Source of the DNA: an uncultured virus (IMG/VR IMGVR_UViG_3300044959_000200)
Lineage: Duplodnaviria > Heunggongvirae > Uroviricota > Caudoviricetes
Direction: 5' to 3' (one strand)
DNA: 20,000 bases
Virus record (IMG/VR): IMGVR_UViG_3300044959_000200
Location: 58,551-78,550 of that record
The notes below the pieces were generated by a model. The model ran no database searches. It had not been told where the DNA came from and saw only the letters and a program-made list of their open reading frames with translations. Position numbers and translations under genes: made by a program. Below, one piece after another: positions 19,345 through 20,000 of this stretch. How positions within the stretch are numbered: position 1 is the first letter of the stretch; each line of letters begins with the position of its first letter.

Positions 19345-20000
19345 ATGAGTACACCGACGCCCGTACTGACCAGCGCAGCCACACTTCGCCAAAAACTGCA
19401 CGAAAAGACAACTAAGGCGTTAACTGCTGTTTTCCCCATTGACCTCAAAGGTAAAACGCTGGAAATCAAAGATGTACGTGTAAATTCACAAGATTTCACA
19501 CCATCAGACGAATACAACGCACTTATGAAAGGTTCATCACTTTATGAACCAGTCAAAGGCACACTTGTACTTAAAGACGCAAACGGAAAAATCCTCGACG
19601 AAGCAAAAAACTTCACGTTAGCACACATACCGTACTTAACATCGCGCCACACCATCATCGTAGATGGCAACGAATATCAAATTGCAAACCAATTACGCCG
19701 CAAACCGGGAGTTTACACCCAGCGAGCTGACAACGGCGAACTTAAAACAGTGTTCAACCTTGGGCGCGGAAAAAACTTCAATCTCACATTTAATCCTGAT
19801 AAAGGAACATTCTACCTTCAATATGGTACGTCAAATTTGCCTCTTTACGCCGTATTGCGAGGCCTTGGCGTTGAGCACAGCCAAATTGCTAAGCACTTAG
19901 GCGAAGGCGTAGCGCGCGCCAATGAAAAAGAGTACGGACACCAAATTGCGCCAACAATTAACAAGCTTTACACAAAGCTAGAGCATCCAGCTGTGCTGGA
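19345..20000 (+). CDS. rpoB: DNA-directed RNA polymerase beta subunit, N-terminal part (runs off the right edge)
   Basis: Not in the ORF track. Hand translation gives MSTPTPVLTS...VFPIDLKGKTLEI...SLYEPVKGTLVL...LAHIPYLTSRHTIIVDGNEYQIANQLRRKPGVY...LPLYAVLRGLG. This parallels bacterial RpoB FPI...YxxPL...GeIPlMTdxGTFiiNGxERVivsQLxRSPGVy...lLrAlG but is strongly diverged. Confidence 0.88.
   Translation, partial: MSTPTPVLTSAATLRQKLHEKTTKALTAVFPIDLKGKTLEIKDVRVNSQDFTPSDEYNALMKGSSLYEPVKGTLVLKDANGKILDEAKNFTLAHIPYLTSRHTIIVDGNEYQIANQLRRKPGVYTQRADNGELKTVFNLGRGKNFNLTFNPDKGTFYLQYGTSNLPLYAVLRGLGVEHSQIAKHLGEGVARANEKEYGHQIAPTINKLYTKLEHPAVL

Follow-up and report, generated by a model that had tools for sequence, protein, structure and literature searches.

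Multisubunit RNA polymerases (RNAPs) of cellular type are already known in phages, from the metagenomic mReC lineage described in 2020 and from the cultured Salmonella phage Arash described in 2023. The window analysed here, a stretch of 20,000 nucleotides (nt), adds one more, truncated, member to this barely studied but recorded polymerase family. It covers positions 58,551 to 78,550 (G000:C1:58551-78550) of the IMG/VR virus record IMGVR_UViG_3300044959_000200, which is linear, has 78,550 bases and is rated 46% complete by CheckV. The element in question is a stop-free frame that runs from position 19345 to the end of the window. Almost certainly this frame is the beginning of the gene for the large chain of a slimmed-down, bacterial-type RNAP encoded by a phage, an enzyme that in the relatives consists of two chains, beta fused to the N-terminal half of beta-prime and a separate C-terminal half of beta-prime.

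The mReC clade was defined on 97 contigs with beta and beta-prime subunits that stand apart from cellular ones (Weinheimer & Aylward 2020, PMC7481178). The supplementary table of that study has 104 'Metagenomic phage' rows, in which beta and beta-prime are always two open reading frames (ORFs). A beta of 997-1105 amino acids (aa) goes with a beta-prime of 887-976, or one of 1358-1400 with one of 1000-1017, and a few other size pairs occur (1487 with 1303, 1300 with 1200). Several contigs hold two sets (~1000+900 aa and ~1360+1005 aa), recalling the virion and non-virion pairs of phiKZ. The capsid proteins match Gp23 (PF07068), and in the main text the word 'sigma' never occurs and 'fused' is used for crAss-like phages only (PMC7481178).

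Judged by sequence similarity, the closest characterised relative of the window's gene is Arash, not an mReC contig. Among 50,697 phage records searched by tblastn, 53 gave a match, and in four of these the alignment extends over at least 80% of the protein: Arash (35.9% identity) and the Vibrio phages D181, D148 and D69 (~35%). The remaining matches are bacterial rpoBC genes on mislabelled records or are far weaker and partial. The Arash genome (OQ632216.1, 180,819 bp) carries the portal gene gp204, then gp205 and gp206 (1525 aa), and further on gp216 (606 aa), a helicase and head proteins; its sigma factors are gp10 and gp196. GenBank labels both Arash chains 'subunit beta', and in D69, where the Arash gene order is kept, both are annotated as hypothetical. 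The passages of the Arash paper that bear on the enzyme do not mention a fusion of beta to the beta-prime N-half (PMC10585845). These four phages share with the window lineage the two-chain layout, the order portal, small ORF, large chain and, further on, beta-prime C-half, the sigma factors and a genome class of ~180 kb, and the match covers 97% of the 1499-aa closest relative of the window's protein. They differ in being distant (35-37% identity) and in having enterobacterial and Vibrio hosts. Because Arash is in culture, questions of function are testable.

The frame at the window edge and the two chains of its relatives

The frame begins at ATG 19345, with an in-frame TTG at 19336 as an alternative start, and has no stop codon before base 20000. 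The gene is incomplete because this base is also the final base of the 78,550-base record.

19345 to 20000, plus strand: 5' end of the RNAP large-chain gene, first 218 codons (beta N-terminus, protrusion and start of the lobe)

An earlier note on this DNA, made from its letters, had reported an open frame running to the edge with the RpoB N-terminal block, missed by the ORF track and far from the cellular consensus, and these observations hold. The frame is absent from the track because it is shown only when open-ended ORFs are requested, and the 218-aa translation contains the block HIPYLTSRHTIIVDGNEYQIANQLRRKPGVY. Against solved structures the fragment matches bacterial beta chains, with a best E value of 6.2e-6 (8syi_C) for an alignment of residues 76-186 to residues 89-201 of a cyanobacterial beta. 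Among the sequences listed to E 10, 47 of 48 are RNAP beta, the exception being a ribosomal protein at E 1.2. Pfam has no match to the fragment alone, and PHROGs give a single weak match, to a family of unknown function. Relatives of the fragment occur on nine IMG/VR contigs (L003-L011; 47-98% identity), of which L003 is the closest (98% identity to L003:10001-10654). The divergence from cellular enzymes is evident in its full-length chain, which scores 330.3 bits with the bacterial RpoB equivalog NF001616 (cut-off 896) and 300.8 with TIGR02013 (cut-off 801); all of the best PDB and NCBIfam matches of the large chain are bacterial, and none is archaeal.

The first chain of L003 (L003:10001-14497, 1499 aa) holds in one ORF the Pfam domains Rpb2_2, Rpb2_3 and Rpb2_6, followed by Rpb1_1 and Rpb1_2. 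When aligned to solved structures, residues 38-1012 correspond to bacterial beta, while residues 1086-1472 match both beta-prime (~168-540) and cyanobacterial gamma (196-573 of 624). In the relatives, chain 1 (~1500 aa) thus reads as a compact beta (~1010 aa) that runs directly into the beta-prime N-half; it has clamp helices and a double-psi barrel that bears the catalytic motif NLDYDGD. At the junction, beta is succeeded by the N-terminal segment of beta-prime, 'GGLFD ... HIDLHEPIPNPVF', which by comparison with E. coli beta-prime lacks the Cys4 zinc ribbon. The chain contains no cysteine in 1499 aa, which is consistent with the missing first zinc ribbon; 10 of 20 family members likewise have none (range 0-7), and the other window proteins of more than 300 aa have 0.6-2.3% cysteine.

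The second polymerase gene of L003 (601 aa) lies 1.2 kb downstream of chain 1, beyond three small genes, one of them ferritin-like (L003:14514-14996). It contains Rpb1 domains 4 and 5 (Pfam). On the rpoC model it spans positions 548-1070, with chain 1 stopping at 539, and it aligns to residues 634-831 and 884-1105 of Thermus beta-prime (a deletion construct), the bridge-helix and trigger-loop regions. Chain 2 (~600 aa) of the relatives can therefore be read as the C-half of beta-prime, comprising the bridge helix, the second zinc site and a trigger loop that lacks the SI3 insert. There is no alpha or omega gene in the five records of the lineage that were searched, two of which are the complete genomes of Arash and D69. 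None of the five matched alpha (PF01193, PF01000), and none matched omega (PF01192) above cut-off, with one 13.7-bit match inside a 505-aa frame; the controls for these searches were positive in 14 of 14 genomes.

The anatomy of the relatives alters one part of the original description and bears out another. A plain RpoB beta subunit had been proposed; in the relatives beta is fused to the N-half of beta-prime and the C-half is a separate gene. The note had also looked to the rest of the gene for an early end without a double-psi barrel, or for the remainder of beta and an NADFDGD-type motif. The full-length relatives do not end early (1499 aa in the closest), and they have double-psi barrels and a DxDGD site. 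A phage-encoded, cellular-type multisubunit RNAP gene in a phage context is upheld, and the lineage also has the remaining parts of the enzyme.

That context is as had been noted, with the frame two genes after the portal and no rplJL upstream:

14941 to 17019, minus strand: SNF2-family helicase (Pfam SNF2-rel_dom and Helicase_C; PHROG 62), divergent from the portal gene
17020 to 18768, plus strand: probable portal protein, 582 aa, by likeness to Arash gp204; present in nine of nine relatives
18770 to 19180, plus strand: conserved ORF of 136 aa, function unknown; homologue at the same position in nine of nine relatives
19181 to 19344, plus strand: leader of the RNAP gene, its last ~150 nt conserved in relatives

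The 582-aa protein is 32% identical to Arash gp204, an annotated portal detected in virions, over 540 residues (E 2e-103); Pfam, PHROG and NCBIfam have no match to it, and the protein Atlas offers weak portal leads only. The 136-aa ORF has no family match in Pfam, PHROG or NCBIfam. The order helicase (minus strand), portal, small ORF and RNAP is found in the window (14941-20000), in L003-L011, in Arash and in D69. All nine close relatives continue to a beta-prime C gene, and the helicase is seen in eight, which are all those whose locus extends that far. The large terminase gene lies directly ahead of the window (G000 55787-57427). Neither rplJ nor rplL was found upstream of the frame in the window, whereas the genuine bacterial rpoB loci examined do carry both.

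How does the two-chain enzyme compare with other known polymerases? Like mReC, it belongs to tailed phages, has a cellular-like beta and beta-prime that branch apart from those of cells, and has a compact beta of ~1000 aa. Unlike mReC, in which beta and beta-prime are whole and occupy two ORFs, it joins beta to the N-half of beta-prime, and a pair of ~1500-aa beta and ~600-aa beta-prime is seen in none of the 104 mReC table rows (PMC7481178). A PF07068 search detected the Gp23-type capsid characteristic of mReC in neither complete genome (Arash or D69), with Rhizobium phage RHph_Y65 as a positive control, and in none of five partial relatives, G000 itself not having been searched. RHph_Y65 (L183) combines a Gp23 capsid with a 1127-aa beta-prime, and has no PF00562 match in its 206,821-base genome. 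The metagenome identifiers of six of the nine close relatives do not occur in the mReC supplements, and no contig on the mReC list came up in scans with P0214, A2 and P0188, which look like 'beta-alone' proteins. The earlier suggestion that the enzyme is most like mReC therefore stands in so far as this is a tailed-phage contig with a cellular-like beta/beta-prime, but not for the two-ORF layout or the Gp23 capsid. That the window lineage is the same kind of thing as mReC is partly supported; it does not demonstrably fall within the published mReC set.

The phiKZ and AR9 enzymes, as far as the accounts consulted describe them, are likewise phage-encoded, lack alpha and omega, have a beta-prime broken after the catalytic barrel and exist in a virion form. 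They differ in having beta split into two or three chains, remote from cellular beta, with no sigma homologue and two paralogous sets, whereas the window lineage has a whole, fused beta, sigma factors and one matching place per complete genome. The split beta-prime of cyanobacteria and plastids (gamma/rpoC1 plus rpoC2) has a nearly identical break point, no more than ~25 residues away. Chain 1 aligns to positions 194-571 of 626 in the gamma model and ends ~30 residues later, but it scores 123 against a cut-off of 1117, its beta-prime N-half shares one chain with beta, and no large insertion is present in the C-half. Finally, the beta::beta-prime fusions of Helicobacter and Wolbachia (NF007172, NF011417) also join the C-terminus of beta to the N-terminus of beta-prime. 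These are full-size cellular enzymes that retain alpha and omega. Chain 1 scores 318 and 302 bits on the two models, against cut-offs of 5372 and 4632, and complete single-chain fusions of ~1935-2081 aa occur on deeper branches of the phage clade. No description of a phage fusion of beta with the beta-prime N-half was found in the full-text literature, as searched in part and with the bioRxiv supplements and the mReC PDF supplements outside the search.

Family, forms and origin of the large chain

The polymerase is well conserved among the nine close relatives. The large-chain frame has 1466-1518 codons, or 1660-1867 with inserts, and the beta-prime C frame has 600-607 codons in eight and 754 in L009. 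In an alignment of 20 diverse members (A1; ~1450-1500 aa, 35-71% identity to the query), residues D778, K779, K787, D1367, D1369, G1370 and D1371 are invariant.

The family is large. A word-indexed search gave at least 1308 proteins at E <= 0.001 among 7999 candidates scored, and the best 120 of the 1308 all contain both PF00562 and PF00623. An exhaustive search with residues 1-1000 gave 8137, 3977 and 1720 cluster representatives (50% identity) at E <= 1e-3, 1e-10 and 1e-30, counts that include cellular enzymes and of which the best 150 were detailed. In IMG/VR, a relative of the query is encoded in at least 573 of 621 candidate stretches (tblastn E <= 1e-3).

Three forms of the large chain were distinguished by Pfam in 21 of the best 150 representatives. 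In the first, a single chain carries the whole of beta and beta-prime, measuring 1935-2081 aa when free of inteins and up to 3019 aa when intein or LAGLIDADG inserts are present; the second consists of beta plus the beta-prime N-half; and the third, of 1045-1148 aa, shows beta domains alone. Such 'beta-only' entries (1025-1150 aa) may be fragments, because their relatives are fusions by ORF length. Among 12 such loci in IMG/VR and JGI, seven have a frame of ~2040-2160 codons and five have frames of ~1460-1620 plus ~600-660, and a frame of 2627 aa occurs at another locus. Inteins or LAGLIDADG homing-endonuclease domains lie within the polymerase of many family members (L007, L008 and L009; also P0143, P0125, P0147, P0151, P0157, P0169, P0175, P0227 and P0247), often just past the catalytic barrel (~residue 1450) and sometimes near the beta/beta-prime junction. 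PF18823 is found inside the large chain of many relatives (P0027, P0030 and P0034 among them), and PF00719 once.

Phage-type copies also turned up when species genomes were scanned with alignment A1, on contigs in metagenome-assembled genomes (MAGs) of many phyla; a scan of species genomes with P0002 gave no match. The MAG contigs from GTDB (L021-L034, 42-183 kb) carry such labels as Gemmatimonadaceae, Acidimicrobiaceae, Cloacimonadota, Desulfovibrio, Treponema, Thermoguttaceae, Nanopelagicales and Methylococcales, among others. Most MAGs with a phage-type contig have a genuine rpoB on a different contig, and in 20 MAG genomes PF00562 scored 337-464 bits for genuine rpoB versus 62-189 for the phage-type copies on other contigs. 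These contigs are likely mis-binned phage, or at most a weak hint of the host.

The origin of the family was approached with a tree of the beta region, with 61 rows and 994 columns: 44 phage rows (including Arash and D69), 13 bacterial rpoB from nine phyla, and four DPANN archaeal B subunits represented by their C-terminal part only. It was computed under LG+C20+F+G4 by posterior mean site frequencies (PMSF) in a quick search, with support from the Shimodaira-Hasegawa-like approximate likelihood-ratio test (SH-aLRT) only. Of the phage rows, 42 were picked by eye from 150 listed representatives for single-stretch coverage. Left out were intein-bearing proteins, partial bacterial rpoB from four MAGs, YerA41, Carin-5, the Rhizobium phages and the phiKZ-type enzymes, the last because they are too divergent to align.

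In the free tree all 44 phage rows form one clade (SH-aLRT 100) on a stem of 1.43 changes per column and, with the root on the four archaea, the 13 bacteria form a clade (SH-aLRT 99) that excludes them. The window's protein falls in a subclade almost wholly of the two-chain form. Rows of the one-chain and 'beta-only' kinds branch off deeper, a pattern that fits an ancestral single chain with a later break. The earlier note had proposed a tree with cellular RNAPs, and had allowed that the gene might nest in a bacterial clade amid ribosomal-protein genes. The absence of rplJL and the free tree argue against such nesting. The position outside Bacteria is less secure. An approximately unbiased (AU) test does not reject a grouping of the phage clade with the four Pseudomonadota (delta lnL 18.7, p-AU 0.22), and a firm claim of deep branching is weakened by this result. 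The clade might instead be an old capture from within Bacteria, followed by fast evolution and loss of parts, rather than a pre-bacterial lineage or a sister of Bacteria. We regard this origin as a serious contender, though somewhat short of an even chance: besides the AU result, the long phage stem invites long-branch artefacts and the best PDB and NCBIfam matches are bacterial, whereas the free tree sets all sampled bacteria apart from the phages and the phage chain is only 24-28% identical to any sampled bacterial beta.

Sigma factors, possible virion delivery and alternative explanations

The earlier note had pointed to a sigma factor 7.4 kb away and suggested that the element may encode its own transcription holoenzyme. 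The gene does lie at that distance before position 19345:

11122 to 11946, plus strand: sigma-70-family factor with regions 2 and 4, 274 aa (Sigma70_r2, 33.1 bits against a cut-off of 24; PHROG 351, E 1.4e-26)

Its start at ATG 11122 is supported by an alignment of orthologues, and its matches to NCBIfam sigma families are all below cut-off. Its counterparts are Arash gp196 (tblastn E 4e-11) and D69_0246. The record holds a second sigma factor 21 kb upstream, like Arash gp10 (G000 37343-38008; 29% identity, E 6.5e-25), and a PF04542 sigma is present in five of five relatives. The holoenzyme proposal is strengthened in that the lineage encodes two sigma factors and the remaining polymerase parts, while the pairing of sigma with core stays inferred. 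The phage core probably uses the phage sigmas, a view that we hold with some reserve.

The Arash virion has been analysed by mass spectrometry. In the parts of that report dealing with virion proteins, gp206 has 3516 spectra, the most of any protein and above the major capsid protein, gp216 has 1210 and the sigma factor gp10 has 467; the authors propose either a packaged enzyme for early transcription or carry-over of abundant proteins (PMC10585845). The RNAP genes lie between the portal and head genes in nine of nine relatives. On balance we lean slightly towards delivery of the phage polymerase in the virion.

These observations can be joined in a single explanation, which we consider reasonably probable as a whole. 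Beyond the two-chain anatomy, seen directly in the relatives, its steps are conjectural. The covalent link between beta and beta-prime would take over the assembly role of the alpha dimer, in a core without alpha or omega. This core would pair with the phage's own sigma-70-family factors, one in the window and one 21 kb upstream in the record. The enzyme would be made late along with the head genes, packed in the capsid and delivered with the DNA, and it would then transcribe phage genes independently of the host polymerase. If this is true, a minimal polymerase of ~2100 residues in two chains, which needs neither alpha nor omega and may enter the cell along with the DNA, would serve well as a model for the assembly of multisubunit polymerases and for their dispensable parts, and would represent a rifampicin-independent route to host takeover. 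The strongest version, in which this self-sufficient, capsid-shipped machine descends from a one-chain ancestor that predates the radiation of the sampled bacterial phyla, is tentative and rather unlikely in all its parts.

Several points weigh against this explanation. The record itself holds 218 codons of the gene, everything beyond residue 218 being drawn from relatives, and no beta-prime C gene was found in it, as the record stops. The beta-prime C chain keeps four cysteines, so that the enzyme as a whole is not cysteine-free. The phage core might recruit host alpha. The link between sigma and phage core is suggested by sequence and co-occurrence, and phage sigmas usually serve the host core. 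A promoter scan found no sigma-70 consensus promoter on the plus strand before the RNAP gene, and no repeated promoter motif was found ahead of it. Packaging in virions was measured in Arash only, at 35-37% identity.

The same enzyme might therefore act without virion delivery, being made after infection while the host enzyme reads the early genes. The Arash signal would then be carry-over, as the Arash authors themselves allow in stating that abundant late proteins may co-purify with particles (PMC10585845). Some carry-over is suggested by the detection of ribonucleotide reductases and RNA ligases in Arash virions as well (PMC10585845), and each complete relative has a single RNAP-matching place, unlike the separate virion and non-virion sets of phiKZ. 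Yet gp206 tops the spectra, the polymerase genes sit inside the portal-to-capsid block of all nine relatives and chain 1 is cysteine-poor (suggestive only), and on these grounds we find the alternative possible but doubtful. Less probable still, and in our view unlikely, is that the phage sigmas redirect the host polymerase while a different specificity factor, or none at all, serves the phage core, as with the phiKZ and AR9 enzymes. There are good precedents, since T4 gp55, SPO1 gp28 and phiEco32 gp36 all work on the host core. A review of jumbo phages, in the part consulted, also notes that sigma homologues serving the host enzyme are frequent in phages without an RNAP. Against it, Arash virions contain sigma gp10 alongside both polymerase chains (PMC10585845), sigma and polymerase co-occur in five of five relatives, and the clamp-helix region, the docking site of sigma region 2, is present in chain 1, in the part aligned to beta-prime 168-540. 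It is extremely improbable that the frame represents contaminating bacterial DNA or a dead remnant. The sole point in its favour is the lack of a Pfam match in the 218-aa fragment, and it is refuted for practical purposes by the phage flanks without rplJL, the synteny in nine of nine phage relatives, the invariant catalytic residues and scores far under the bacterial equivalog cut-offs. The phage-encoded two-chain polymerase, with its own sigmas and possible virion delivery, remains our preferred reading.

Leader of the polymerase gene and other features

The leader contains a possible hairpin (~19283-19309) followed by CTTTTACC, ~30-60 nt ahead of the RNAP start in an alignment of eight loci, and the block with the possible hairpin is conserved in seven relatives. 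In this hairpin 69.6% of cells are paired, versus 59.2% in shuffles, and three of seven pairs are changed on both sides; RNAalifold gave no consensus fold for the leader. A pair of TCATGATCAC copies before the RNAP gene was considered as a promoter element and rejected, since it is not retained in L003. The stop codon of the 136-aa ORF lies within an inverted repeat (19161-19194; 11-bp stem, GGGGTGTGCCG / CGGCACACCCC) that is not followed by a T-run. Four relatives (L004, L005, L007 and L008) have an extra GC-rich insert of ~300-480 nt between the small ORF and the RNAP gene, which is missing from the window and from L003. The enriched intergenic 9-mers stem solely from one tandem repeat outside the window (G000:C1 ~3290-3390), an array of the 11-nt unit GCGCCTTATGA that adjoins a duplicated block of ~30 nt.

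Elsewhere in the window, positions 1-1557 (minus strand) belong to a PcfJ-like gene of 541 aa (in full G000:C1:58482-60107), located between the terminase and the DNA polymerase. Its G+C content is 64-66%, versus 45-49% for the phage genome. Only the closest relative shares the gene (92% identity), Arash and three other relatives lacking it, and it was probably acquired recently from a source of high G+C. A 1163-aa protein (5167-8658, minus strand) has a faintly primase-like N-terminus (PHROG 47, dnaG, E 3e-4), and a 470-aa protein of unknown function (9894-11306, minus strand; PHROG 23155) is encoded by a frame that overlaps the 5' end of the long form of the sigma ORF.

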